Part shown: piece by piece, positions 2,564-20,767 of the stretch | Numbering within the stretch: position 1 is the stretch's first letter | Layout: each line of letters opens with the position of its first letter | Virus record (IMG/VR): IMGVR_UViG_2547132272_000014 | Reading direction: 5' to 3' (one strand) | DNA length: 20,767 bases | Source: a virus | Taxonomy: Duplodnaviria > Heunggongvirae > Uroviricota > Caudoviricetes | Notes under the pieces: model-generated | Database searches by the model: none | Told to the model about the DNA's origin: nothing | What the model saw: only the letters and a program-made list of their open reading frames with translations | Made by a program: the position numbers and the translations under genes

Positions 2564-3454
2564 ATGTCTCTACACTCTCCAGGTAAAGCGTTTCGCGCCG
2601 CACTCTCCAAAGAAACTCCGTTGCAAATTGTTGGCACCATTAACGCCAACCATGCGTTGTTGGCGCAGCGTGCCGGATATCAGGCGATTTATCTCTCCGG
2701 TGGTGGCGTGGCGGCAGGTTCGCTGGGGCTACCCGATCTCGGTATTTCTACCCTTGATGATGTGCTGACCGATATTCGGCGTATCACCGACGTTTGCTCG
2801 CTGCCGCTGCTGGTTGATGCCGATATCGGCTTTGGCTCTTCGGCCTTTAACGTGGCGCGTACTGTGAAATCGATGATTAAAGCCGGTGCGGCAGGATTGC
2901 ATATTGAAGATCAGATCGGCGCGAAACGCTGCGGTCATCGTCCGAACAAAGCGATCGTCTCGAAAGAGGAGATGGTTGATCGGATCCGCGCGGCGGTGGA
3001 TGCGAAAACCGATCCTGATTTTGTGATCATGGCGCGCACCGATGCGCTGGCAGTGGAAGGTCTGGACGGCGCGATCGAACGCGCGCGAGCCTATGTTGAA
3101 GCCGGTGCCGAGATGCTGTTCCCGGAGGCGATTACTGAACTCGCCATGTACCGCCAGTTTGCCGATGCGGTGCAGGTGCCAATCCTCGCCAACATTACCG
3201 AATTTGGCGCCACGCCCCTGTTCACCACCGATGAATTACGCAGCGCCCATGTCGCAATGGCGCTGTACCCGCTTTCAGCATTCCGCGCCATGAACCGCGC
3301 CGCTGAACATGTCTACAACATCCTGCGCCAGGAAGGCACGCAGAAAAGCGTGATCGACACCATGCAGACCCGTAACGAGTTGTACGAAAGCATCAACTAC
3401 TACCAGTACGAAGAGAAGCTCGACGACCTGTTTGCCCGTAGCCAGGCGAAATAA
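2564..3454 (+). CDS. prpB: 2-methylisocitrate lyase, 296 aa
   Basis: ORF 2564..3454 with AAGGATGG upstream; isocitrate lyase/PEP mutase family signatures (KRCGH catalytic loop, EDQ motif); recognised as E. coli PrpB. Confidence 0.9.
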
Positions 3455-3615: not shown

Positions 3616-4650
3616 ATGAGCGACACAACGATCCTGCAAAACAGTACCCATGTCATTAAACCAAAAAAATCTGTGGCACTTTCTGGCGTTCCGGCGGGTA
3701 ACACCGCGCTTTGTACCGTAGGCAAAAGCGGCAACGACCTGCACTATCGCGGCTACGATATTCTCGATCTCGCAGAACATTGCGAATTTGAAGAAGTGGC
3801 GCATCTGCTGATCCACGGCAAACTGCCGACCCGTGACGAACTCGCCGCTTACAAAACGAAACTGAAAGCCCTGCGCGGTTTACCGGCTAACGTGCGTACC
3901 GTGCTGGAGGCTTTACCTGCGGCGTCGCACCCGATGGATGTTATGCGCACCGGCGTTTCCGCGCTCGGCTGCACGCTGCCGGAAAAAGAGGGGCACACCG
4001 TCTCCGGCGCGCGGGATATTGCCGACAAACTGTTGGCGTCGCTGAGTTCGATTCTTCTCTACTGGTATCACTACAGCCACAACGGCGAACGCATCCAGCC
4101 GGAAACCGATGACGACTCTATCGGCGGTCACTTCCTGCATCTGCTGCATGGTGAAAAGCCGTCGCAAAGTTGGGAAAAGGCGATGCAAATTTCGCTGGTG
4201 CTGTACGCCGAGCATGAGTTTAACGCCTCCACCTTTACCAGCCGGGTGATTGCGGGCACCGGCTCTGATATGTATTCAGCCATTATCGGCGCGATTGGTG
4301 CACTGCGCGGGCCGAAGCACGGCGGGGCGAATGAAGTGTCACTGGAGATCCAGCAACGCTACGAAACGCCGGACGAAGCCGAAGCGGATATCCGCAAGCG
4401 CGTGGAAAACAAAGAAGTGGTGATTGGTTTTGGCCATCCGGTTTATACCATCGCCGACCCGCGCCATCAGGTGATCAAGCGTGTGGCGAAGCAGCTCTCG
4501 CAGGAAGGCGGCTCGCTGAAGATGTACAACATTGCCGATCGCCTGGAAACGGTGATGTGGGAGAGCAAAAAGATGTTCCCCAATCTCGACTGGTTCTCCG
4601 CTGTTTCCTACAACATGATGGGCGTTCCCACCGAGATTGTGGGGTGGTGA
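3616..4650 (+). pseudogene. prpC: 2-methylcitrate synthase prpC, 3'-truncated by prophage insertion
   Basis: Translation matches PrpC (citrate synthase family) through ...[13 protein letters not shown]. As I recall it, intact PrpC continues MFTPLFVIARVTGW... for about 45 more residues; here the frame reads IVGW-stop, encoded by the first bases of the prophage end. Chromosome/prophage junction is at 4637/4638. Confidence 0.75.
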
Positions 4651-4949: not shown

Positions 4950-5600
4950 TTATGCTGATTTCTTGTTTACAGGCTTCGTTTCTTGCTCCGGCGTGGCAAC
5001 GGTCTGACCACCTGGCGACCTAGCTCGTATATGAGATTCGATGCGGCGCAAAATCTCTTTGTCAATTTCTTCGTTACCATCTAATGCCATACATATGGCG
5101 TCTTTTAGCGATTCCCTGATGTTCAGGCTTCTGATGGCATTCTCCTGTTCGTCTAGGTCGTTGTAGGCCTGTTTCGCTTGCCTGGTGGGTTGTTGTAGGC
5201 GTTCCAGGACTCCTTTGATACCAATACAACAAAGCATATCAATAAGACGCTCTCTATCTTCTGGAGCGGCTCGTCTTAGTATTTCGTCAACAATACTTGT
5301 ATCGGGGCGGTTAACGTCTTCTGTAGTCACCCTTGATTTTTCTACCATTGGAACACTTCTGTTCTCACCGTAGACCAGCCATTCCAGTGATACATTCTCT
5401 AATTTTGCTATTGTAGCGACCACATTTAGGCCAGGTGTCGTGCCTTTTTCAAAGTAGTTATTTATGGTCGAGTACGGTAATCCCCAGTCTGAGGTGGCTT
5501 TACGCAGGCTCCTGGTGCCAATCAGTTGTTTGATTCTGTCTTGAATGCTTTCTTTTCTATCCTGAGAAAAGGAAAAATCATCAGCGATTTGTTTACTCAT
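4950..5600 (-). CDS. Prophage repressor candidate, N-terminal HTH (XRE/CI-like), 216 aa
   Basis: Minus-strand ORF divergent from ner; AGGA upstream of ATG 5600 on the minus strand; N-terminal segment LRKATSDWGLPYSTINNYFEKGTTPGLNVVATIAKLENVSLEWLVYGE looks like a CI/C2-type helix-turn-helix; no obvious S24 peptidase motif in the C-terminal half. Confidence 0.6.
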   Translation of the reverse strand: MSKQIADDFSFSQDRKESIQDRIKQLIGTRSLRKATSDWGLPYSTINNYFEKGTTPGLNVVATIAKLENVSLEWLVYGENRSVPMVEKSRVTTEDVNRPDTSIVDEILRRAAPEDRERLIDMLCCIGIKGVLERLQQPTRQAKQAYNDLDEQENAIRSLNIRESLKDAICMALDGNEEIDKEILRRIESHIRARSPGGQTVATPEQETKPVNKKSA

Positions 5601-5768: not shown

Positions 5769-6005
5769 ATGATGGTTAGAAATGAAGTAATGAACAAAGA
5801 CTGGCACCGCGAGTACATCGTTGCCGCTGTGCACACCAAAGGTTTTACATTGCGTGAACTTTCTGAACGCGCTGGTCTAAAAAAAGACTCTTTAAAAAAT
5901 GCACTGTATCGCTCATGCCCTAAATATGAACGCATCATAGCCGATGCTATTGGTGTGGAACCTGCGGAGATCTGGCCAAGCCGGTATGCCAGTAAGGCGG
6001 CGTAA
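5769..6005 (+). CDS. ner: Ner-like DNA-binding protein (Mu Ner / Nlp family), 78 aa
   Basis: ORF track 5631..6005 trimmed to ATG 5769 (AAGGG at 5757-5761); sequence KDWHREYIVAAVHTKGFTLRELSERAGL...IIADAIGVEPAEIWPSRY resembles Mu Ner (…DWHRADVIAGLKKRKLSLSALSRQFG…IWPSRY, from memory). Confidence 0.75.
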   Translation: MMVRNEVMNKDWHREYIVAAVHTKGFTLRELSERAGLKKDSLKNALYRSCPKYERIIADAIGVEPAEIWPSRYASKAA

Positions 6006-8047
6006 TGTTTTATTCAGCCAATGAGCTGGCCGGTCTTCCTGGTTTGCCCGGTACAGTTCAGGGGGTGCGCTGGACGCTCAATCGGATCACAGAGACGCAC
6101 CCAGAATGGAAGCGCAAGCGCGAAGGCACCAAAGCATTCGAGTATCACATCGACTGCCTGCCCGCTGAAGCGCAGAAAGTTTTACGTAAGCGCCTGACTC
6201 ATCAGGTCCTGGAAGATGCACAACTGCCCGCCGTAGTTGAGCAGAAAGCAGTTAAAAACGTCGCCGTTCGCGATGAACTGGAGGTGATGGTCAAATGCCC
6301 GGAGCTGGCATTACGCGAAGTCCAGTCACTGACCGACAAGCAAAAGGCCATCGCTGATGCGCGGATATTGCTGGCTACTGAAGTGCATAAGCTGCGCGAG
6401 TATGCCGGAATGACCAGGAAGGCCGCTTTAAAGCACATCGTTGATGGTGTGCGCATGGGGGCGTTACCTGACCGCATTATCGAAGCAGCGAATACTGCAA
6501 ATGCACGTCAGGGAAAGCGAACCGGTGTCAGCACCGGCAGCCTGGATAGCTGGTACTCCAGCTGGGTGATGGCGCGCGGTGATGCCAATCAGTTACTGGC
6601 GTTACTGGCTCCCGGTCATCATAAGGGAACACCGTGGGAGCAGGTCTGGTGGTTGAGCGATTTCTTTATGTTCTATCGCTCATGGAAGCGCCCGACTGTT
6701 GAATATGCGTATCGTGAGTTTTCAGCCTGGTGGCATGAAAAACACGCGAATGATGCGGGAATGCTGGCGGCACTGCCTTCAGTTCACGCAGTAAGACGGG
6801 TGTTAAGCAGCGTCCCGGTGATTGTTAAAGAGCGTTTCCGCTCCACCGGTTCAGCCTGGCGTTCGCTCAATCCCTTTGTGCGGCGCGACTGGACATCATT
6901 ACCGGTTAATGCGGTATGGGTCGGGGATGGTCACTGTATGAAAATGACCGCGTTTAACCCCCTGACCGGCAATATTTTCCGGCCAGAAGTGACGCTGGTT
7001 ATGGATGCGGGGCAACGCTTTGTTGTGGGCTGGTCACTGTCCCTGTCGGAGAACGTGATAGCTGTTGCTGATGCGTTGCGTTACGGCATGGCACAGCACG
7101 GGATACCGCTGATTTATTACTCCGATAACGGGGGCGGCGAAAAAAACCGGGTGCTTGATGCCGATATTACCGGGATTCTGCCCCGTCTGGGTGTGGAACA
7201 TCACACGGGGATACCAGGTAACCCGCAGGGGCGCGGGGTGATTGAACGGGCAAACAAAGGAATACCCAAAGACGTGGCTCTGAGTTTCCAGACGTACTGC
7301 GCAAGGGATGCAGACAAGGAAACCGTAATGATGCAGCAACGGATTATGCAGTCAGCCATTAAGGCCACCCACAAAGGGAAAGAGCTGACAAAACGGCAGG
7401 TTAAGGCGAGGGATGAAATCCCTACCTTTGAGCAACTGATGGCAGCCATAGAGCTGGAGGTCAGACGCTATAACAACCGGCCACACAGCAGCCTTCCTCG
7501 CAAAGAGGATGGCGAATATTACAGCCCGGCAGCGTATCGCCGGAAACTGATAAAAGAGCAAAAGGCTGAAATCGACATGCTGTCGCCGGAAGAACTGCAT
7601 GAAATGTTCAGACCGGAAGTGACGCGCAAAACATTTCGCGGGGAAATTCAGTTATTCAACAATATTTATTACTCATATGAGCTGGCCGCAGAGCACGGGA
7701 ATGAAGTCAGGGTCAGTTACGATATTCATGATGCAAACAGCGTCATTGTCCGGCGGGCTGATGGCTCTTATATCTGCGATGCCATCTGGAACGGTAACAA
7801 GGTTGATGCCTTCGCTAAACCAGTTATCGAGCAAAAACTGGAGAAACGCGTCAGGGGCCGCATTGCACGGGCCACGCAGAAAATCGAAGAAGCTAAACGC
7901 GAGCTTACCCCGGCCATTACGCAGAAGCCTGACTTTAATCTGGGATATGGACTGGAGCGCCCGGAGAAAAAGGAAAAAGAAGAACTTTATTTATTCGCAT
8001 CTGAACGCGAACGCAATTTAAAGAAAAACGGCACAAACAACCGTTAA
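6005..8047 (+). CDS. MuA-like DDE transposase, 680 aa
   Basis: Start overlaps the ner stop (TAATG); N-terminus ANELAGLPGLP resembles the MuA N-terminus (ANLPGLPKT); candidate DDE residues in WVGDGH, YYSDNGG and GRGVIER; size and position match Mu A. Confidence 0.85.
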   Translation: MFYSANELAGLPGLPGTVQGVRWTLNRITETHPEWKRKREGTKAFEYHIDCLPAEAQKVLRKRLTHQVLEDAQLPAVVEQKAVKNVAVRDELEVMVKCPELALREVQSLTDKQKAIADARILLATEVHKLREYAGMTRKAALKHIVDGVRMGALPDRIIEAANTANARQGKRTGVSTGSLDSWYSSWVMARGDANQLLALLAPGHHKGTPWEQVWWLSDFFMFYRSWKRPTVEYAYREFSAWWHEKHANDAGMLAALPSVHAVRRVLSSVPVIVKERFRSTGSAWRSLNPFVRRDWTSLPVNAVWVGDGHCMKMTAFNPLTGNIFRPEVTLVMDAGQRFVVGWSLSLSENVIAVADALRYGMAQHGIPLIYYSDNGGGEKNRVLDADITGILPRLGVEHHTGIPGNPQGRGVIERANKGIPKDVALSFQTYCARDADKETVMMQQRIMQSAIKATHKGKELTKRQVKARDEIPTFEQLMAAIELEVRRYNNRPHSSLPRKEDGEYYSPAAYRRKLIKEQKAEIDMLSPEELHEMFRPEVTRKTFRGEIQLFNNIYYSYELAAEHGNEVRVSYDIHDANSVIVRRADGSYICDAIWNGNKVDAFAKPVIEQKLEKRVRGRIARATQKIEEAKRELTPAITQKPDFNLGYGLERPEKKEKEELYLFASERERNLKKNGTNNR

Positions 8048-8065: not shown

Positions 8066-8959
8066 ATGAGTTTAATTACGCAATTAAATGACGTAATGGC
8101 CCGTCGCGGCTATACGCAAACCCACGTCGCCCGTGCTATTGGTCGTAGCAGCGCCGTTATCAACCAGTATTTACAGGGTAAATATCAGGGCGATATGGCT
8201 GATATTGAAGAACGCATTTTCGCCTTTGTGACCCGTGAGCGGGAAAAGGAAAACAGCCGCCGTATTAAAGCGAAATTTGTTGCCACCGGTATGGCTGCCA
8301 AAGGACTGGAGGTGTTGGCCTATGCTCACCTGGAATGTGAAATCTGCGTACTGTATGGCGCGGCAGGTCTTGGCAAAACAATGATTCTGCGTGAATACGC
8401 CGCCAGAAACCGGGATGCGGTCCTGATTGAAGCCGACCCGGGCTATACAGCCAGAACACTGCTTGAGGAGCTGTGCCGCCAGCTGGGGGTAAAAGTTCGC
8501 GGCAATATCCACGAACTGATTGATGCATGTGTGCGAGAACTGCGTGATTCCGGTCGCCTGCTGATGGTGGACGAGGCTGAACTGCTCCCCTATCGCGCAC
8601 TGGAGGTTCTGCGCCGTCTGCATGACAAAGCGGGTATCGGGATTGTCCTGGCGGGTATGCCACGCCTTCTGATTAACCTCAAGGGACGTCGCGGTGAGTT
8701 CGCCCAGTTATACAGCCGTGTGGCGCTGGCGCTTAACCTGGGCGATACGCTGGCGCAGGAAGATTTTAACCAGATAGCCACCGGGCTGATGCCGGAAGCA
8801 GCAGAACCGGAAATCAGCGAGGCGCTTTACGTACGCTCGCTGGGTAATGCCCGCCGCCTCTTCAAACTGGCGCGCGGTGTGTACCGGATTTGTGATATCA
8901 GCGATGCACCGGTCAGTGTGCAGGCCATTGATAAATTCGCAGAAATGTTAATTCACTGA
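8066..8959 (+). CDS. MuB-like AAA+ ATPase (transposition target DNA activator), 297 aa
   Basis: N-terminal HTH-like segment, Walker A GAAGLGKT, Walker B-like LLMVDEAE; immediately downstream of the transposase as in Mu. Confidence 0.75.
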   Translation: MSLITQLNDVMARRGYTQTHVARAIGRSSAVINQYLQGKYQGDMADIEERIFAFVTREREKENSRRIKAKFVATGMAAKGLEVLAYAHLECEICVLYGAAGLGKTMILREYAARNRDAVLIEADPGYTARTLLEELCRQLGVKVRGNIHELIDACVRELRDSGRLLMVDEAELLPYRALEVLRRLHDKAGIGIVLAGMPRLLINLKGRRGEFAQLYSRVALALNLGDTLAQEDFNQIATGLMPEAAEPEISEALYVRSLGNARRLFKLARGVYRICDISDAPVSVQAIDKFAEMLIH

Positions 8960-13231: not shown

Positions 13232-13483
13232 ATGAGATGGGTTGACATTTTTATTATCGCTCTGATTGTTACGGGTATTGCGCTTTGTGTAACAACTAAC
13301 AAGGCTTCTGATGATGCGGAAAGTGGGCATTGCGTGGTAAGGAGAAATTTCATCAAAACCATTACGCATTGTGATGATGGAAGCGCCACCGTGACCAGCG
13401 GGGATAAGTTTATTTATTGCTCTGCGGGGAAAAATGGCACGCCATCCTGTCATGAAGTGACGCTCGGTGATGGTGATAAATAA
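13232..13483 (+). CDS. Small membrane-anchored Cys-containing protein, 83 aa
   Basis: ORF track 13064..13483 trimmed to ATG 13232; hydrophobic segment WVDIFIIALIVTGIALCV followed by a soluble domain with four more Cys. Confidence 0.45.
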   Translation: MRWVDIFIIALIVTGIALCVTTNKASDDAESGHCVVRRNFIKTITHCDDGSATVTSGDKFIYCSAGKNGTPSCHEVTLGDGDK

Positions 13484-13563: not shown

Positions 13564-13842
13564 ATGAAGATTGAACAAGTCGGAATGGCAGCTTTCAGGC
13601 AACAGGCTGAAAGCGGTGGCGTGGATGAGTTCGTCGTGCAGCGGTTCGGTGGTGTGTATCACCTCTTCGCTGTGAATCGCCGCGCCGGGGTGTCCTATTT
13701 TCTACAGGAACGCCGTGGCGATTACAAGACGTGGCTGTCTCTTGACCGTGCCGCCGCGTTCCTGTCGGGGATTGGCGTTTCACGTTTTACCGTGCGTTTT
13801 GAGGATAACAAACATGCTGAAAAAGATGATCGGAGCCATTAA
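13564..13842 (+). CDS. Hypothetical protein, about 92 aa, start uncertain
   Basis: Codon-like ORF 13528..13842 but no convincing RBS at any in-frame start (13528, 13564, 13587); overlaps the GemA-like start by 29 nt. Confidence 0.3.
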   Translation: MKIEQVGMAAFRQQAESGGVDEFVVQRFGGVYHLFAVNRRAGVSYFLQERRGDYKTWLSLDRAAAFLSGIGVSRFTVRFEDNKHAEKDDRSH

Positions 13843-14209
13843 AGCCGGTCAGGCGTATCTGGGGTGGGATGATGCCCTTTATCGCCAGACGCTGGCCCGT
13901 CTGACCGGTAAAACCAGCACCACACGCTGCAATCTCGATGAACTGCGCATCATCCGGGAATACATGCACGAACAGGGATTTCCGCGCAAAGCGCCCGCCG
14001 GTAAAGGTCGCCGCCCCCGTGTTGCAATGAGCAGAAAATCGGTATTATCCAAAATTGAGGCGTTGCTGGCTGATGCCGGTCGTTCCTGGGCGTATGCGGA
14101 AGGACTGGCATCTCACATGTATAAGCAACATGTGATCGAATGGCTGACGGATGAACAGCTTTTTGGGGTGATGGTGGCGCTGGTTAAAGATTCAAGGAGA
14201 CGTAAATGA
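13814..14209 (+). CDS. GemA-like protein (Mu gp16 / DUF1018-like), 131 aa
   Basis: ORF track 13715..14209 trimmed to ATG 13814 with GAGGA at 13801-13805; N-terminus KKMIGAIKAGQAYLGWDDALYRQTLARLTGKTSTTRCNLDELRIIREYMHEQGF matches the remembered GemA-family pattern; lies just upstream of the Mor-family gene as gemA does in Mu. Confidence 0.55.
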   Translation: MLKKMIGAIKAGQAYLGWDDALYRQTLARLTGKTSTTRCNLDELRIIREYMHEQGFPRKAPAGKGRRPRVAMSRKSVLSKIEALLADAGRSWAYAEGLASHMYKQHVIEWLTDEQLFGVMVALVKDSRRRK

Positions 14210-14544
14210 AAAAACTGTTATTACTTATTCTGGCTTTATGTTTTACAGGGATATCCCATGCTTCTGATTCAGAGGAAGATTTGATCAAAAAAACATTACA
14301 GGGCGATTATCAGGCACAACGTAATCTGGCTTATTCATACATGAATGGCTGGGATGATATTTCAAAGGATATCATCAGAGGATGCGCTCTCAGGAAGGTT
14401 ATTCTCTTGACACAAGCCAAAGCTGACATTGGCGATTATGGAAATGAAGCCATAGATTGCCGAAAAGTGCATCCAACAGATAACCAGAAAGTATGGGAAT
14501 ATGTCAGAGGATACCTGGTGTTGATAAACGAGAATAAAAAATAA
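14206..14544 (+). CDS. AT-rich cargo gene encoding a secreted/periplasmic protein, 112 aa
   Basis: ATG overlapping the GemA-like stop (ATGA), AAGGAG at 14194-14199; signal peptide MKKLLLLILALCFTGISHA/SD; about 32-37% GC in the two 60-nt stretches I counted, versus about 55% in neighbours. Confidence 0.5.
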   Translation: MKKLLLLILALCFTGISHASDSEEDLIKKTLQGDYQAQRNLAYSYMNGWDDISKDIIRGCALRKVILLTQAKADIGDYGNEAIDCRKVHPTDNQKVWEYVRGYLVLINENKK

Positions 14545-14643: not shown

Positions 14644-15111
14644 ATGCAGACCTTCAGTGAAACAGATCTTCGCGATGCGCAGGCACTGCTGCCCGACTCC
14701 GTGCAGCAACTGATTAGCGTGATTGGCTTCCCCGCCCTGACCCGGTTGATTCGTTCTTTTGGTGGCGTGACGTTAAGCGGTAAAACCGGCGCACACGCTG
14801 AACGCACCGGCGGCGTCCATGCCCTGTTACATGATGTGCTGACCGAAGACGAAATCAACAAACTGATCCGCTTTCTTGGCGGTGCTCCGTTTTACATTCC
14901 CCGTTGCGATCATGCGTTACGTGCCCTGCGTAACACCCGTTTTATGGCTGATTTACAGCGGCATATCAGGGACGGATTCTCACACCGGCAGGCGCTGGCA
15001 CTGCTCTGTCCCCGCTACGGGATTTCAGATCGGTACGCATGGCAGCTGATACACCGACGACAAAAACAGACTTCGCTGAAAAGCCCCACCCAGGTGGGGC
15101 TTTTTGATTAA
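14644..15111 (+). CDS. mor: Mor/C-family transcriptional activator, 155 aa
   Basis: GGAG at 14631-14634; C-terminal region LGGAPFYIPRCDHALRALRNTRF...LALLCPRYGISDRYAWQLIHRRQ matches the Mor/C pattern (GG.VYIP ... YG.S...VY.I..R); positioned after the early terminator as mor is in Mu. Confidence 0.65.
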   Translation: MQTFSETDLRDAQALLPDSVQQLISVIGFPALTRLIRSFGGVTLSGKTGAHAERTGGVHALLHDVLTEDEINKLIRFLGGAPFYIPRCDHALRALRNTRFMADLQRHIRDGFSHRQALALLCPRYGISDRYAWQLIHRRQKQTSLKSPTQVGLFD

Positions 15112-15138: not shown

Positions 15139-15426
15139 ATGATGCGTTCTGACACCGATATCGACTATGCAGTACTCGGTGAATATACCGCATTTTCAGA
15201 CAAGGCCCGGGATGCAGCCCGTCGCCGACATGCTGAAATGTGCAATTTATCCAGTTACCTGGCGAAACAGGCCCAAAGCCCGGAATCAGTAACGAATCAT
15301 GATGAAGTGCTGTCAGCCGTAAACAGAATGATTGACGCAGAACGGGAAATGCGTAATGCCGTGGAAAGAGCTAACCTGCTGGCGCGGGCATGTTATAAGC
15401 CACCATTAAAACTCGCTTCCCTTTAA
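15139..15426 (+). CDS. Hypothetical protein, 95 aa
   Basis: ATG 15139 with AAGGAG at 15125-15130; no family recognised. Confidence 0.4.
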   Translation: MMRSDTDIDYAVLGEYTAFSDKARDAARRRHAEMCNLSSYLAKQAQSPESVTNHDEVLSAVNRMIDAEREMRNAVERANLLARACYKPPLKLASL

Positions 15427-15613
15427 TCCATCCAGATAATCAACCTGCTGGGGGTGCTGAACACCCCCAGCAGTACCCACCACACCAGACCGTTTACCCT
15501 GTCCACTCAGACCACAAGGCACCTTAAGGGATAGCGCCCTGCAAAAGGCTTTTGTGCCTTTGACAGGGTGTTATTTACGGGCCGTCAGTGGCTCAGATTT
15601 ACAGGAGAAACTC

Positions 15614-16027
15614 ATGTCTGAACCCTTATCAGGCGGCGGGGCTGTGGCAGTCACCATCGGTGGTGCCAGTGTGTTTGGTCTTCTCACCAATACCGATTTC
15701 GGGGTCGTGGTGGGCGCGTTTGCCGGGGCGCTTTTTGTTGTCACGCAGCAGAAAGAAATCCCGGTATGGCGAATGGCTATTCACCTGCTCGTCGCGTTTG
15801 TGGTTGGCGTTCTGGGGGCTGGCGTGGCTGCGTCACTGATGCAGTGGCTGACCCATTACAACGACAAACCGCTTGATGCATTGTGTGCGGTCGGTGTCTC
15901 GGCGTTATCCATCAAGATACTGACCTTTTTTTATCAGCAGGAAATCAAAGTCCTGCTCGGTATGTTCTCAAAACTGTTCAACCTCGTATCAAAGTTGTGC
16001 GGTGGAGGGGGAGAAAATGGAAAGTAG
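15614..16027 (+). CDS. Multi-pass membrane protein, lysis-cassette candidate (holin/antiholin-like), 137 aa
   Basis: ORF track 15554..16027 trimmed to ATG 15614 with AGGAG at 15603-15607; about four Gly/Ala-rich hydrophobic segments; lies directly upstream of the endolysin. Confidence 0.45.
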   Translation: MSEPLSGGGAVAVTIGGASVFGLLTNTDFGVVVGAFAGALFVVTQQKEIPVWRMAIHLLVAFVVGVLGAGVAASLMQWLTHYNDKPLDALCAVGVSALSIKILTFFYQQEIKVLLGMFSKLFNLVSKLCGGGGENGK

Positions 16028-16295
16028 CCTTGCCGGTATTGTGAATGTCTGGTTGTGTCTCGCCATTGTGCTGGGGTTGTTTGTGTATCGCCGCCACGGT
16101 GCGGCGCATAAACCGATGATTACCTGGCTGGCGTACTGGCTGATGCTCGGTTACATCATCATCCCGTTCCGCTGGCTGTCCGGTACATACACGCACTCCA
16201 GCTGGCTGGTTGTGGCGCTGAATCTGGTTTTCTGTGCGCTTATCGTGTGGGCGCACGGGAATTTGTCAAAAATCCTTTCGTTACTGCGGAGGTAA
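16017..16295 (+). CDS. Three-TM small membrane protein, holin candidate, 92 aa
   Basis: ORF track 16002..16295 trimmed to ATG 16017 with GGAGGGGGAG upstream; three hydrophobic segments (IVNVWLCLAIVLGLFVY, ITWLAYWLMLGYIIIPF, WLVVALNLVFCALIVWA); ends 2 nt before the endolysin start. Confidence 0.45.
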   Translation: MESSLAGIVNVWLCLAIVLGLFVYRRHGAAHKPMITWLAYWLMLGYIIIPFRWLSGTYTHSSWLVVALNLVFCALIVWAHGNLSKILSLLRR

Positions 16296-16297
16296 AT

Positions 16298-16675
16298 ATG
16301 TCGGGAAAATTCCGTTTCAGTCAACGTAGCGAGAAAAATCTGGCTGGCGTAAAGCCACAACTGGTGGCGGTTGTACGCCGTGCGCTGGCGTTGTCGGACG
16401 TCGATTTTGGTATTACCGAAGGTTTACGCACGAAAGAACGTCAGAAACAACTTGTCGCTGAAGGCAAGAGCCAGACCATGAACAGCCGTCACCTTACTGG
16501 CGATGCCGTTGATGTCGTGGCTTACGTTGGTAGCACCATTTCATGGGACTGGCCGTTATACGAAAAAATCGCCCGTGCCTTTAAACAGGCTGCCGCAGAG
16601 CTGGGTGTCGCCATCGAATGGGGCGGAGACTGGAAAACGCTGAAAGATGGGCCTCATTTCCAGTTAAAACGCTGA
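16298..16675 (+). CDS. Endolysin, peptidase M15 family (zinc D-Ala-D-Ala carboxypeptidase-like), 125 aa
   Basis: ORF track 16247..16675 trimmed to ATG 16298 with GGAGG at 16288-16292; M15-type motifs SRHLTGDAVD (His..Asp metal ligands) and DGPHFQ (second His). Confidence 0.7.
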   Translation: MSGKFRFSQRSEKNLAGVKPQLVAVVRRALALSDVDFGITEGLRTKERQKQLVAEGKSQTMNSRHLTGDAVDVVAYVGSTISWDWPLYEKIARAFKQAAAELGVAIEWGGDWKTLKDGPHFQLKR

Positions 16676-16688
16676 TGCGGGACGGGTT

Positions 16689-16871
16689 ATGAACAGAAGT
16701 CACTGGACCCACAGAACGCCACGTAAAGCCGCGCGCTGTGTTCTGGCCCTGTTTCTGGTGATGTTGCTTCCGGTGGGATGCACAGACATTAACAGAGCGG
16801 GCCAGCTGTTTGACGCGGCGGCGCAGGTCTGCCGGATTATTGACGGTATCCGGCAGTGTTCGCAGAACTGA
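16689..16871 (+). CDS. Small putative lipoprotein, o-spanin candidate, 60 aa
   Basis: N-terminus with a basic region then hydrophobic VLALFLVMLLPVGC ending in Cys (atypical lipobox LPVG/C); directly follows the endolysin. Confidence 0.3.
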   Translation: MNRSHWTHRTPRKAARCVLALFLVMLLPVGCTDINRAGQLFDAAAQVCRIIDGIRQCSQN

Positions 16872-16891
16872 TTTTTCGAAGGTCTGACACA

Positions 16892-17098
16892 GTGAGCATT
16901 ATCAGATTTACAGAATACAGAGGTTCAGGAGGTGCTGGCGCTGTCATGGTGCTTGCTGAACGCATCACCCATTTTTACCGCCAGTACGGTACACATGATG
17001 GCACTGTCATTGAACTGGATACCGGGAAAAACGTGTTTGTTCTTGAAAATCCCGACGAAGTTCAGCGCAGGATTGAACAGGCTCAGAAGGACACTTAA
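16892..17098 (+). CDS. Hypothetical protein, about 68 aa, start uncertain
   Basis: ORF track 16856..17098 starts at a GTG inside the upstream gene; GTG 16892 is an alternative; no family recognised. Confidence 0.25.
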   Translation: MSIIRFTEYRGSGGAGAVMVLAERITHFYRQYGTHDGTVIELDTGKNVFVLENPDEVQRRIEQAQKDT

Positions 17099-17598
17099 TG
17101 GCGTGGTCACAGGATATCAGGGACAAAGTCCGTAACGGGTACATCTTTGACCAGCTTCCGCTGGATATCGTCGCCATGAAGTACGCCGTGCCGCACGACA
17201 CCGCGCGGCGCTGGAAAACGCAGGCGATGAAGAACGGCGACGACTGGGACAAGCTGCGGGCCGCGCACGCGCTCGCCGGTGACGGGCTGGAAAGTGTCGC
17301 CCGCACCGTGCTTATCAGTCTGGTGGTGAAGTGTCAGACGACACTTGAACGGCTGAACCAGAACCCGGACATCCCGCCGCAGGAGTCCGTCGAACTGCTG
17401 GCGAGTCTGTCCGACAGCCTCAGTAAGGCGGTGGCCAGTAGCAAAAAAATCCTGCCGGAAACCGACCGGCTGGCCACGGCACTGGAAGTGGTGCAGCGGC
17501 TCGGCGCGTTCATCAAGGAGCGTCACCCGGCACAGTATGCCCCGTTTCTTGAGGTGCTCGAAGGCTTCGCTAAAGAGCTTGAGGATAATTTCAGTTAA
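17098..17598 (+). CDS. Mu gp27-like protein (DUF1804-like), putative small terminase subunit, 166 aa
   Basis: Start overlaps the upstream stop (TAATG); N-terminal HTH-like region; position two genes upstream of the large terminase as in Mu; family assignment from memory. Confidence 0.5.
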   Translation: MAWSQDIRDKVRNGYIFDQLPLDIVAMKYAVPHDTARRWKTQAMKNGDDWDKLRAAHALAGDGLESVARTVLISLVVKCQTTLERLNQNPDIPPQESVELLASLSDSLSKAVASSKKILPETDRLATALEVVQRLGAFIKERHPAQYAPFLEVLEGFAKELEDNFS

Positions 17599-17644: not shown

Positions 17645-18385
17645 ATGCAAAAACAGATTATTGGTAACGCAACGTTGTATTGCGGTGATGTTCTTGATGT
17701 GCTGCCAGCGTTATCTGAACGTTTTGATGCCGTCATTACCGACCCGCCTTACAGCAGTGGTGGCACACACAAATCAGACCGCAGCATGGCCCCTTCGGAC
17801 AAGTATGTCGGTCACACTCAGTATGCCGAGTTCACCGGCGATAACCGCGACCAGCGCAGCTGGGCGTTCTGGTGTTCCATGTGGATTTCTCATGCATTGC
17901 ACAGGCTGAATCCCGGCGGTTATTTCATGGTGTTCAGTGACTGGCGACAACTACCGGCGCTTACCGATGCATTTCAGGCCGGTGGTGTGCTGTGGCGCGG
18001 TCTGGTTGTCTGGGATAAAACGCTTGCTTCCCGTGCGCCACACACCGGCTATTTCCGGCATCAGGCCGAGTATGTGGTCTGGGGCAGTAACGGAAAACTC
18101 GACAAATGCCCGCACGGTGGCCCGTTCCCGGGTGTGATTACGCAGCGTGTTGTCCCGTCCGAAAAACTTCACATGACCGCAAAGCCGGTTCAGCTGATGG
18201 CCGAGCTGGTTAAACCGCTGGCACCGGATGCGCACGTTCTCGATCCGTTTATGGGAAGCGGCACCACCGCCATCCCTGTACTTGCCCGTGGCGGACGGTT
18301 TACCGGCATTGAAATGACTAACCAGTATTTTGATATCGCCTGCGCACGTCTCGAAAAAGCGCAGGCAGAAGCAGCGCAGGTGTGA
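17645..18385 (+). CDS. DNA methyltransferase (N6-adenine or N4-cytosine, beta-class motif order), 246 aa
   Basis: Catalytic motif IV DPPY (VITDPPYSSGG) near the N-terminus and AdoMet motif I FMGSGTT near the C-terminus; no adjacent restriction endonuclease gene. Confidence 0.8.
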   Translation: MQKQIIGNATLYCGDVLDVLPALSERFDAVITDPPYSSGGTHKSDRSMAPSDKYVGHTQYAEFTGDNRDQRSWAFWCSMWISHALHRLNPGGYFMVFSDWRQLPALTDAFQAGGVLWRGLVVWDKTLASRAPHTGYFRHQAEYVVWGSNGKLDKCPHGGPFPGVITQRVVPSEKLHMTAKPVQLMAELVKPLAPDAHVLDPFMGSGTTAIPVLARGGRFTGIEMTNQYFDIACARLEKAQAEAAQV

Positions 18386-20027: not shown

Positions 20028-20767
20028 TGGCACAGCTTGTTGATATTTACGGACGCCCGCTGAAACGTGAGGCACTCAAAACCACGCAGTCGGTCCGAGT
20101 GGCGGAACGGCTGCGCATTTATCCCGACCACCCGTCCCGTGGTCTGAACATCAGAAAACTGCCACGCATTCTGGAAGCTGCCGAACGCGGTTATCTTCCG
20201 GCGCAGGCGATGCTGTTTGCGGATATGGAAGAACGTGATGGCCATCTGTTCGCCGAGATGGAAAAGCGCAAAAAAGCCTTGCTGACGCTGGACTGGTCGG
20301 TGGAGCCGCCCCGCAATGCCTCGAAGGCAGAAAAGGAGCTGGCCGCCGCCGTGGATGAATGGCTGCACGGTATCCCGGACATGGAGGACATCATCCTCAA
20401 CGGGATGAGCAGTGTCGGTTACGGCTTCAGCTGTCAGGAAATCAGCTGGGCGTTCGTGGATAAAACGTGGTTACCGGATGCGGTGACGCTGCGCCCGCAT
20501 AACTGGTTCATAACTCTGCCGGAACACAATGACGAACTCCGGCTGGATGACGGCAACCGTGGGGAAGACGGTAAGGACGGTTCCGCATTGTGGCCGTTCG
20601 GCTGGCTGGTTCACCGTTACAACGCCCGGTCGGGGTTCCTGGGTTCATCCGGCCTGTTCCGCGTACTGGTCTGGCCGTATCTGTTTAAAAACTTTGCGCT
20701 GCGTGATATGGCGGAATTTCTGGAGATTTACGGCCTTCCGGCGCGCATTGCCTACTATGCACAGGGC
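20027..20767 (+). CDS. Portal protein (Mu gp29-like, DUF935-like), N-terminal 247 codons; continues beyond the window
   Basis: ATG 20027 overlapping the terminase stop (TAATG) with AGGAGG at 20015-20020; open frame to the window end; position after the large terminase; family assignment from memory. Confidence 0.6.
   Translation, partial: MAQLVDIYGRPLKREALKTTQSVRVAERLRIYPDHPSRGLNIRKLPRILEAAERGYLPAQAMLFADMEERDGHLFAEMEKRKKALLTLDWSVEPPRNASKAEKELAAAVDEWLHGIPDMEDIILNGMSSVGYGFSCQEISWAFVDKTWLPDAVTLRPHNWFITLPEHNDELRLDDGNRGEDGKDGSALWPFGWLVHRYNARSGFLGSSGLFRVLVWPYLFKNFALRDMAEFLEIYGLPARIAYYAQG

Follow-up and report, generated by a model that had tools for sequence, protein, structure and literature searches.

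How does a phage that carries an otherwise complete lysis cassette get through the outer membrane of its host when no gene for an inner-membrane spanin (i-spanin) can be recognised beside it? This question was raised by a 20,767-nt stretch of DNA from a tailed virus (IMG/VR record IMGVR_UViG_2547132272_000014), the whole of which is called the window here and to which all coordinates refer. Four genes, designated A to D, occupy positions 15614-16871 of its + strand. How phages without a spanin cross the outer membrane is recognised as an unsolved problem; about 13-15% of the phages infecting Gram-negative hosts are without a recognisable spanin, and the only demonstrated alternative is the disruptin. 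The cassette, its two holins and its endolysin are all of known kinds, and the new part is gene D, an orphan and remodelled derivative of an outer-membrane spanin (o-spanin) gene that replaces the spanin pair. As to what its product does, we tentatively prefer the view that D is an o-spanin-derived outer-membrane lipoprotein that would carry out the last step of lysis without the canonical partner. The features of the cassette are as follows.

15614-16027, + strand: gene A, 137 aa, Phage_holin_8 family, with an AGGAGA Shine-Dalgarno sequence 6 nt upstream
16017-16295, + strand: gene B, 92 aa, Phage_holin_3_7 family, overlapping A by 11 nt
16298-16675, + strand: gene C, 125 aa, predicted soluble M15 endopeptidase, 2 nt past the B stop
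16484-16513, + strand: motif SRHLTGDAVD, C residues 63-72 (ChiX counterpart SRHLTGHAVD)
16646-16663, + strand: motif DGPHFQ, C residues 117-122 (identical in ChiX)
16689-16871, + strand: gene D, 60 aa, putative lipoprotein precursor, PHROG 7528, 13 nt past the C stop
16689-16778, + strand: predicted signal peptide of D, a basic n-region (residues 1-16) and an h-region
16767-16781, + strand: lipobox of D, L-P-V-G-C, with Cys31 presumed to be lipidated
16779-16868, + strand: predicted mature D, 30 residues from Cys31, CTDINRAGQLFDAAAQVCRIIDGIRQCSQN, 29 of them after the Cys
16830-16832 and 16857-16859, + strand: Cys48 and Cys57 of D, invariant in a 7-sequence alignment

The original prediction of a four-gene lysis cassette at this site was borne out, with all elements on the + strand and matches to known families in hidden Markov model and PDB searches. 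Met1 is the sole usable start of D, the next in-frame ATG/GTG lying at codon 24/25, and the full-length protein matches PHROG 7528, a family of unknown function, at 5.6e-42 (residues 1-60 on profile positions 1-60 of 60). There was no Pfam match at E ≤0.1, and PHROGs, Pfam and NCBIfam assign no function to the protein. Searching 1.84 billion representative proteins with the D profile yielded just 13 clusters, every one from this small family, and gave no link to any characterised protein. PHROG 7528 is a tiny enterobacterial family; relatives are encoded on 286 IMG/VR stretches, and homologues occur in phages phiP27 (60% identity), phiSTEC1575-Stx2k and vB_Apl-pPE4 as well as in Salmonella, Citrobacter and Lelliottia. 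The homologues span 35-100% identity and several genera, and the 89 loci compared encode 57 distinct proteins, nearly all from intact 60-aa open reading frames (ORFs). Across 60 distinct coding sequences (synonymous divergence, dS, about 0.5), the ratio of nonsynonymous to synonymous change (dN/dS) was 0.30, with 0.21 for the n-region and 0.23 for the mature part. D is a real gene under purifying selection.

The precursor begins with the basic n-region MNRSHWTHRTPRKAAR, followed by the h-region CVLALFLVMLLPVG and then Cys31, and its hydropathy profile contains a single hydrophobic segment, residues 14-32, with a core of about 14 residues. It had been described from the sequence alone as a lipoprotein-like product with an atypical lipobox, and both halves of that description agree with the family alignment, in which this copy has a proline at -3 while V-G-C31, C48 and C57 are invariant across the seven sequences. 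Relatives carry a canonical LLVGC, LLMGC, LLAGC or LFAGC; among wider relatives the Cys closes an LVGC, LMGC, LAGC or FAGC, and the changes at -3 and -2 are mostly canonical. On this comparison the proline is peculiar to the Mu-like sub-lineage and the family consensus is canonical. Because the G-C pair is invariant and the lipoboxes of the family are mostly canonical, D is taken to be a lipoprotein. Under the Lol sorting rule the residue at +2 decides avoidance, and hence whether a lipoprotein goes to the outer membrane. That residue is Thr in D, and Asp is never found there among the relatives; since Thr at +2 is not a Lol-avoidance signal, D should reach the outer membrane. The mature peptide has a net charge of 0 here (-4 to +3 in relatives) and marginal amphipathicity (shuffle p 0.48 for this copy, 0.006-0.07 for relatives), and in the Lelliottia-type branch its cysteines are 11 residues apart rather than 9. 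Secondary structure prediction by Jpred gave 83% helix for the phiP27 homologue (Kongari et al. 2018, Table S2).

The descent of D was traced through cassettes that lack it. Among 80 IMG/VR loci with A and B genes of the mEp390 type and without D, three (L165, L167 and L174) have an overlapped spanin of the LysB/LysC type in the slot after the endolysin, made up of an i-spanin of about 130 aa (PHROG 214) and an o-spanin of PHROG 456 and Pfam LysC (PF23793). The N-terminus of this o-spanin, MQNSRSHWSHREPRKISKWLL...LLTGC, resembles that of D, MNRSHWTHRTPRKAARCVL...LPVGC, and D residues 2-34 aligned to the LysC-type o-spanin in hhalign with a probability of 96.4% (E 1.1e-9); reciprocally, the o-spanin matched PHROG 7528 at 1.3e-4, and the DNA beneath the two N-termini also aligns. 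In the spanin loci this N-terminal stretch is dual-coding with the C-terminus of the i-spanin. The i-spanin frame is dead in the D loci, in the window by a TAA stop at 16725-16727, and tblastn (E ≤5) detected no i-spanin remnants upstream of D or overlapping it. Since the signal region is homologous in both protein and DNA and the i-spanin frame is dead, D can be regarded as an o-spanin derivative. Judged from these alignments it is one in its 5' half only: the signal for export and lipidation was retained, the partner was lost, and the periplasmic peptide is new and much shorter. Between mature D and the mature domain of LysC no similarity was found (shuffle p >0.08 in all pairs), nor did D match PF23793. 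It was also considered whether mature D is the C-terminus of LysC left by deletion of the Pro-rich linker, as 'SLD...A.QC' is common to both, and this was rejected on shuffled local alignments (p 0.08-0.9).

The company that D keeps was examined in 88 D-bearing loci, 78 of which extend at least 1.6 kb upstream. The A and B pair was present in 76 of these 78, together with an M15 endolysin in 46 and a GH108 endolysin (Glyco_hydro_108/PG_binding_3) in 30. D starts less than 50 nt past the endolysin stop in 41/53 M15 loci and 16/35 GH108 loci, and in the remaining loci 200-1070 nt of variable cargo lie between the two genes. A distant relative of D in Lelliottia is preceded by a holin of the lambda S type (PF05106) and a GH108 endolysin. 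Because the endolysin varies and the Lelliottia holin differs, D goes with the slot; its association is with the end of the lysis module, and not with any one endolysin or holin.

That no separate inner-membrane spanin gene is evident in the cassette had been noted from its sequence, and the same now applies to the wider set. No i-spanin-like ORF was present among the membrane-protein ORFs of the late region of the window or of the complete 37-kb prophage of E. coli STEC316, a relative; apart from A, B and D, the notable membrane proteins of the two are accessory ones encoded in the early region. Nor was an Rz-like or i-spanin-like ORF found in any of the 88 D loci (0/88), either by a topology scan (+ strand ORFs from B to 2.5 kb past D in which one N-terminal transmembrane segment is followed by 45 or more residues of charged tail) or by tblastn with four i-spanin families. 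The exception in tblastn was phage GER2, which has a full Rz in an intact S-R-Rz cassette upstream of a broken D. Three phages deposited as complete genomes, phiP27, phiSTEC1575-Stx2k and vB_Apl-pPE4, have D, and the regions examined in them contained neither a homologue of Rz nor an ORF resembling an i-spanin. In contrast, an i-spanin follows the endolysin in 79 of the 80 D-less loci, and the remaining one is truncated. The spanins that occupy the slot in D-less cassettes are either Rz-like or LysB/LysC, and further cases of an i-spanin after the endolysin, again with no D, are provided by mEp390 (91 aa, PHROG 1026, 'Rz-like spanin'), ENT39118, Klebsiella ST13-OXA48phi12.2, F1055, 118970_sal3 and LMessi. 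D and spanins are positional alternatives.

Two broken copies of D were seen, one in GER2 (L004, 3001-3168) and one in Citrobacter (L088, 5001-5168); in the latter the N-terminus of D is fused or frameshifted into the endolysin ORF.

A cassette of this type is already known from the Stx2e phage phiP27, and A, B and C are routine. In phiP27 the same families occur in the same order, as the holins L28 and L29, the endolysin L30 and an unannotated 60-aa ORF at 20679-20861, with identities to the window of 54% for A, 49% for B, 92% for C and 60% for D. The differences are that about 490 nt and an antisense 90-aa gene separate C from D in phiP27, compared with 13 nt here, that its lipobox is a canonical FLVGC rather than LPVGC, and that the backbone here is Mu-like and not phiP27-like. 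In many loci of the phiP27 type (L043, L058, L035, L060, L064), one or two tail-anchored mini membrane proteins of 44-60 aa (PHROG 4906, 1115 and 4493) abut the start of D. They are absent from the window; in the phiP27-type lineage they may be accessory to lysis or act as partners of D.

In the course of events that we envisage, Mor-activated late transcription would lead A and B to accumulate in the inner membrane until, on triggering, the A/B holes would release the cytoplasmic, signal-less C. C would then strip the peptide stems from the murein by Zn-dependent cleavage of the L-Ala-D-Glu bond. This much of the scheme is well supported by homology. D would meanwhile have had its 30-residue signal peptide cut at Cys31, been lipidated, and been Lol-sorted to the inner leaflet of the outer membrane, where the mature protein would be a 29-residue helical peptide, probably in disulfide-linked oligomers because it has two invariant cysteines. 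From that position D alone would help to destroy or destabilise the outer membrane, as a 'solo' o-spanin derivative. Membrane fusion of the Rz/Rz1 type is unlikely unless there is an unrecognised partner, as 29 residues cannot span the periplasm. The stronger proposal, that lipid-anchored D of 30 residues would be sufficient by itself for the outer-membrane step and so form a third class beside spanins and disruptins, we consider unlikely, while giving it more weight than any of the rival explanations discussed below.

Comparison with known systems shows where D fits and where it does not. It shares with the P2-type LysB/LysC spanins the slot after the endolysin, homologous A and B genes and homology over its N-terminal 33 residues, and differs in lacking an i-spanin and in a mature part that is 29 residues long and predicted to be helical, against about 70 and Pro-rich. 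As with lambda Rz/Rz1, a presumed outer-membrane lipoprotein with periplasmic cysteines stands at the end of the lysis cassette; however, Rz1 requires Rz, the pair spanning the periplasm and fusing the membranes, and D is without an Rz. The 29 periplasmic residues of mature D compare with 62 in the shortest catalogued spanin pair, which is phiP27's own doubtful one, so that D has neither the cognate i-spanin gene nor the periplasm-spanning length of a two-component spanin. The unimolecular spanin (u-spanin) gp11 of T1 offers a parallel, one gene taking the place of the two-component spanin and its product starting with a lipoprotein signal, as D is predicted to do, but u-spanins of this kind have a C-terminal transmembrane segment and a long beta-rich periplasmic domain, and D has no second hydrophobic segment. 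The disruptin gp28 of phiKT, a phage without spanins, is a 56-aa peptide predicted to be helical; it disrupts the outer membrane and complements lambda mutants defective in their spanins. It offers a precedent, as another small peptide predicted to be helical, for spanin-independent outer-membrane disruption, but it is cationic, resembles LL-37 and has no lipoprotein signal, whereas mature D has no net charge and is putatively lipid-anchored. D therefore does not belong with the disruptins as cationic, amphipathic proteins without a signal: its charge is 0, the p value for its hydrophobic moment is 0.48, and it has a putative lipoprotein signal. Colicin lysis proteins, or bacteriocin release lipoproteins, mature from precursors of about 45-60 aa to lipidated peptides, about 30 residues long, that make the envelope permeable and need no partner. 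They (PF02402, Lysis_col) are the closest architectural analogue for solo action, the analogy being one of size and architecture only, as there is no sequence relation to D (no Pfam match, E ≤0.1).

Several points weigh against a solo role of D in breaching the outer membrane. Lambda Rz1 is inactive alone, and we know of no precedent for a solo o-spanin. Attack on the membrane in the manner of a disruptin has no support in the sequence, as D is not cationic and its amphipathicity is marginal. The lipobox of this copy is atypical in having Pro at -3, and the helix at residues 31-59 comes from an AF2 model of low confidence (predicted local distance difference test score, pLDDT, about 61-73). 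About half of the phiP27-type loci have 200-1070 nt of unrelated genes between the endolysin and D, an arrangement that is moron-like. When cultures are shaken and divalent cations are lacking, progeny are still released by phages with defective spanins, and the viability of phages with only D is thus no proof that D works. A literature search found no experimental work on D or on orphan o-spanins.

One alternative, which we regard as improbable, is that D is a genuine o-spanin that bridges and fuses the membranes together with an inner-membrane partner that has gone unrecognised, such as a phage protein of non-canonical topology, a tail-anchored mini protein, a holin or a host protein. The descent of D from a LysC-type o-spanin fits this, as do its two invariant periplasmic cysteines, a feature of most spanins (Kongari et al. 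2018). That survey treated spanin-less lysis as open, allowed for i-spanins of other topologies, and listed 31 genomes with a lipoprotein and no linked i-spanin. It also catalogued a separated two-component spanin in phiP27, with a 64-aa i-spanin at 20348-20542 and an o-spanin at 20706-20861, as the shortest pair, with 62 periplasmic residues in a range of 62-300 (Kongari et al. 2018). The o-spanin of this entry (a singleton family, 'PhiP27', based on computation only) is the D homologue. Its proposed partner did not hold as a candidate: the 64-aa ORF begins with TTG, matches no PHROG, is found in only 3/90 loci, is without a counterpart in the window, and lies (L002 2670-2864 = NC_003356 20348-20542) antisense to the 90-aa gene, a PHROG 36812 member that other loci conserve at 45% identity. 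On this comparison the published i-spanin is probably spurious and not a gene.

There are other candidates for a hidden partner. The mini membrane proteins of PHROG 4906, 1115 and 4493, directly upstream of D in many phiP27-type loci, are among them, but they are missing from the whole STEC316 prophage as well as from the window. The 83-aa, Cys-rich membrane protein at 13232-13483 (PHROG 8391), type II-like and considered as a distant i-spanin, was rejected on its presence in only 6 other D loci. The presence of A and B with D in 76/78 loci might point to a holin as the partner, but A and B also occur with complete Rz or LysB/LysC spanins and so do not need D, a D relative is found with a lambda-S-type holin, and the predicted periplasmic loops of A and B are only 4-12 residues long. 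Mature D itself, with 29 residues or about 4 nm as a helix, would have a short reach across the periplasm. ORF E, downstream of D, was rejected both as a part of the system and as a u-spanin extension of D by frameshift: it is in another frame, is not hydrophobic, and is confined to the Mu-like lineage.

Equally improbable in our estimate is that D is an accessory, moron-like lipoprotein that is dispensable for lysis, the outer membrane failing passively once the murein is lost. D might then act in superinfection exclusion, envelope modification or lysis timing, and its position would be comparable to that of lambda bor. Cargo is indeed often inserted in the interval between lysis and packaging genes, around D (genes for toxins, KilA-N, HNH, an Ivy lysozyme inhibitor and small ORFs), many loci have other sequence between the endolysin and D, and the databases searched give D no function. 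Against this, D lies on the late strand and in this lineage 13 nt past the endolysin stop, with no promoter-like site of its own, and it is kept in unrelated backbones, Mu-like and phiP27-like, while the adjacent cargo varies. It also descends from an o-spanin gene that holds the orthologous position, is strictly complementary to spanins (0/88 versus 79/80), and decays beside a full Rz in GER2.

Still less probable is an unlipidated D, with the signal retained as an uncleaved anchor, that would be a type II inner-membrane modulator of the holins, like an antiholin or Lcc6 of LambdaSo. The Pro at -3 of this copy, the unusually long, conserved and basic n-region (dN/dS 0.21), the near-constant linkage with A and B, and the existence of small membrane proteins that act at holin level (LambdaSo Lcc6) would all suit such a role. 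However, the aligned members all have G-C and the lipoboxes are mostly canonical, the hydrophobic core of about 14 residues is short for a stable transmembrane helix, and lipoprotein o-spanins have a homologous signal region; the layout of Lcc6 is also the opposite one, a transmembrane domain and then a cytoplasmic tail. That D is only a functionless relic of a deleted LysB/LysC locus, as the destroyed i-spanin frame, a mature domain unrelated to LysC and the occasional broken copies (GER2, L088) could suggest, is highly improbable given purifying selection (dN/dS 0.30 at a synonymous divergence of about 0.5), intact 60-aa ORFs at 35-100% identity in nearly all of 89 loci from several genera, and three invariant cysteines (7-sequence alignment).

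The genes ahead of D are of recognisable kinds. The two membrane proteins with overlapping genes that the original prediction placed before the endolysin, one with four segments and one with three, were recovered by hydropathy analysis, four being probable for A. Gene A matches Pfam PF16931 at 2.3e-21 (76.6 bits, cut-off 26.4) and PHROG 198 ('holin') at 2.6e-39, and its RefSeq relatives are labelled 'phage holin family protein'. Its hydropathic segments are at residues 10-24, 29-43, 58-72 and 89-103, followed by an amphipathic C-terminal tail; because the first two are short and Gly/Ala-rich, the count of four membrane segments is only probable. A single-sequence AF2 model of low confidence (pLDDT 58) places helices at 7-25, 29-46, 51-82 and 85-108 and an extra C-terminal helix at 111-130; this model and that of D (pLDDT 61) were used for helix positions only. 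Gene B matches PF05449 ('Putative 3TM holin') at 5.1e-17 (62.1 bits, cut-off 25.4) and PHROG 217 ('holin') at 2.2e-31, with segments at 8-22, 35-49 and 63-77 and a basic C-terminus (LLRR). By score, multiple transmembrane segments and a location upstream of the endolysin, A and B belong to Phage_holin_8 and Phage_holin_3_7, respectively. From the positive-inside rule, B is predicted to be N-out/C-in, a class I-like topology resembling that of lambda S, and is more likely to be the hole-former. Phage P2 has a holin/antiholin pair, Y and LysA, and by analogy A may be a co-holin or antiholin. No experimental paper on either Phage_holin_8 or Phage_holin_3_7 was found in a literature search.

The assignment of C to the metallopeptidase-type endolysins, made at first from its motifs SRHLTGDAVD and DGPHFQ, stands: the motifs align to ChiX and the M15 profile matches. 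The protein matches PF13539 (Peptidase_M15_4) at 1e-12 (48.9 bits, cut-off 25) and PHROG 465 ('endolysin') at 3.6e-74. Among PDB entries it aligned from end to end with a 129-aa M15C protein (7.9e-44), ChiX of Serratia (5opz, 2.4e-43), 8q2g, a 'peptidoglycan L-alanyl-D-glutamate endopeptidase' (2.9e-43), and the T5 endolysin (2mxz, 6.4e-25). The SxHxxGxAxD and DGPH motifs of T5 endolysin, ChiX and 8q2g are conserved in C (E 6e-25 to 8e-44), and its H-x6-D and D-x-x-H motifs agree with those of ChiX and the 129-aa M15C structure, which places C among the M15 endolysins. His65 and Asp72 we take to be Zn ligands by analogy with the T5 endolysin, and Asp117 and His120 are presumed to be the catalytic and Zn residues. 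The prediction that C is an M15 (VanY/T5-type) L-Ala-D-Glu endopeptidase endolysin is thus well supported by homology, the difference from ChiX being that ChiX functions in a secretion system and C belongs to a prophage late operon. Hydropathy analysis gave no transmembrane segments in C, which is also without a signal or signal-arrest-release segment and therefore requires a hole-forming holin.

The window is a chromosome segment of the E. coli type carrying an inserted Mu-like prophage, and its other features are listed below.

739-2394, - strand: prpR, intact
2564-3454: prpB, intact
3616-4650: prpC, a citrate-synthase-family gene, truncated (profile positions 2-327 of 357 only)
4950-5600, - strand: CI-type repressor
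6005-8047: Mu transposase A
8066-8959: MuB-like ATPase
13232-13483: variable cargo, PHROG 8391, protein of 83 aa anchored at its N-terminus and containing six Cys
13715-14209: GemA
14206-14544: variable cargo, PHROG 5882, protein of 112 aa whose signal peptide looks cleavable
14644-15111: Mor, late activator
15139-15426: 95-aa ORF between Mor and gene A
15445-15473 and 15531-15574: inverted repeats between the 95-aa ORF and gene A
16892-17098: ORF E, 68 aa, PHROG 7691, between D and DUF1804
17098-17598: DUF1804
17645-18385: N6/N4 DNA methyltransferase, PF01555, between DUF1804 and TerL
From about 18330: TerL

The cassette lies after Mor and ahead of the packaging genes (DUF1804/TerL), which is the usual position of the lysis genes in Mu-like phages. 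Related E. coli prophages are about 96% identical over 15400-17100; 111 of 5426 complete E. coli genomes gave some match to the lysis region and 21 a near-full one, and two IMG/VR contigs (L006, L007) encode proteins identical to those of the window. A megablast search of the phage collection gave no match, and relatives there were found at the protein level. No sigma-70 promoter-like site was found in the interval from A to E, terminator-like matches inside A and C were about as numerous as expected from shuffled sequence, and NCBIfam returned nothing above noise for A to E. ORF E is not membrane-associated, and its match to FlbD is below threshold.

The prophage sits inside the prp operon, the end of prpC lying about 300 nt ahead of the phage repressor gene, and its insertion appears to have truncated prpC. 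The STEC316 relative is inserted elsewhere, at the aga locus, as is expected of a transposing phage; at the slot of the methyltransferase gene, between DUF1804 and TerL, it has only a gap of 52 nt. The listed start of the TerL ORF (TTG, 18330) overlaps the methyltransferase gene and is probably too far upstream. The genes at 13232-13483 and 14206-14544 each occur in only a minority of related Mu-like loci. Of the inverted repeats upstream of A, one has a perfect 12-bp stem with a 5-nt loop, and the other has 19-nt arms, 79% complementary, flanking TTGACA; the two could serve as a terminator or attenuator and as an element of a Mor-responsive late promoter.

Some of the related loci have features of their own. 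A secreted lysozyme inhibitor of the Ivy family (PF08816, 3.4e-16) is encoded about 409-831 nt past the D start in the phiP27-type locus L052, and a periplasmic lysozyme inhibitor beside lysis genes is odd, the cassette using a GH108 endolysin. Phage vB_Apl-pPE4 (L003, PP818812.1), with C 88% and D 57% identical to those of the window, has a lysis cassette near-identical to that of phiP27-type phages of E. coli, and its stated host, Actinobacillus, looks questionable. In Rac-SA53 (L095), LT-IIa is encoded between the endolysin and terS, with a pertussis-like toxin upstream, and in phiP27 (L002) Stx2e lies upstream of the cassette. As these toxin genes adjoin the cassette, release of the LT-IIa, pertussis-like and Stx2e toxins depends on the lysis module.

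For the question of how the outer membrane is passed when no spanin is present, the D cassette provides a genetically easy case in E. coli, with every other part present and with sister cassettes that differ essentially in the slot only. The analysis corrects the database entry of phiP27 as the 'shortest two-component spanin', and would give a name to a gene that is now a 'hypothetical protein' in E. coli genomes, including those of Stx2e and Stx2k phages, in which lysis governs the release of toxin. If D does act alone, it would represent a new class that is widespread in the prophages of E. coli, Salmonella and Citrobacter, Shiga-toxin phages included.

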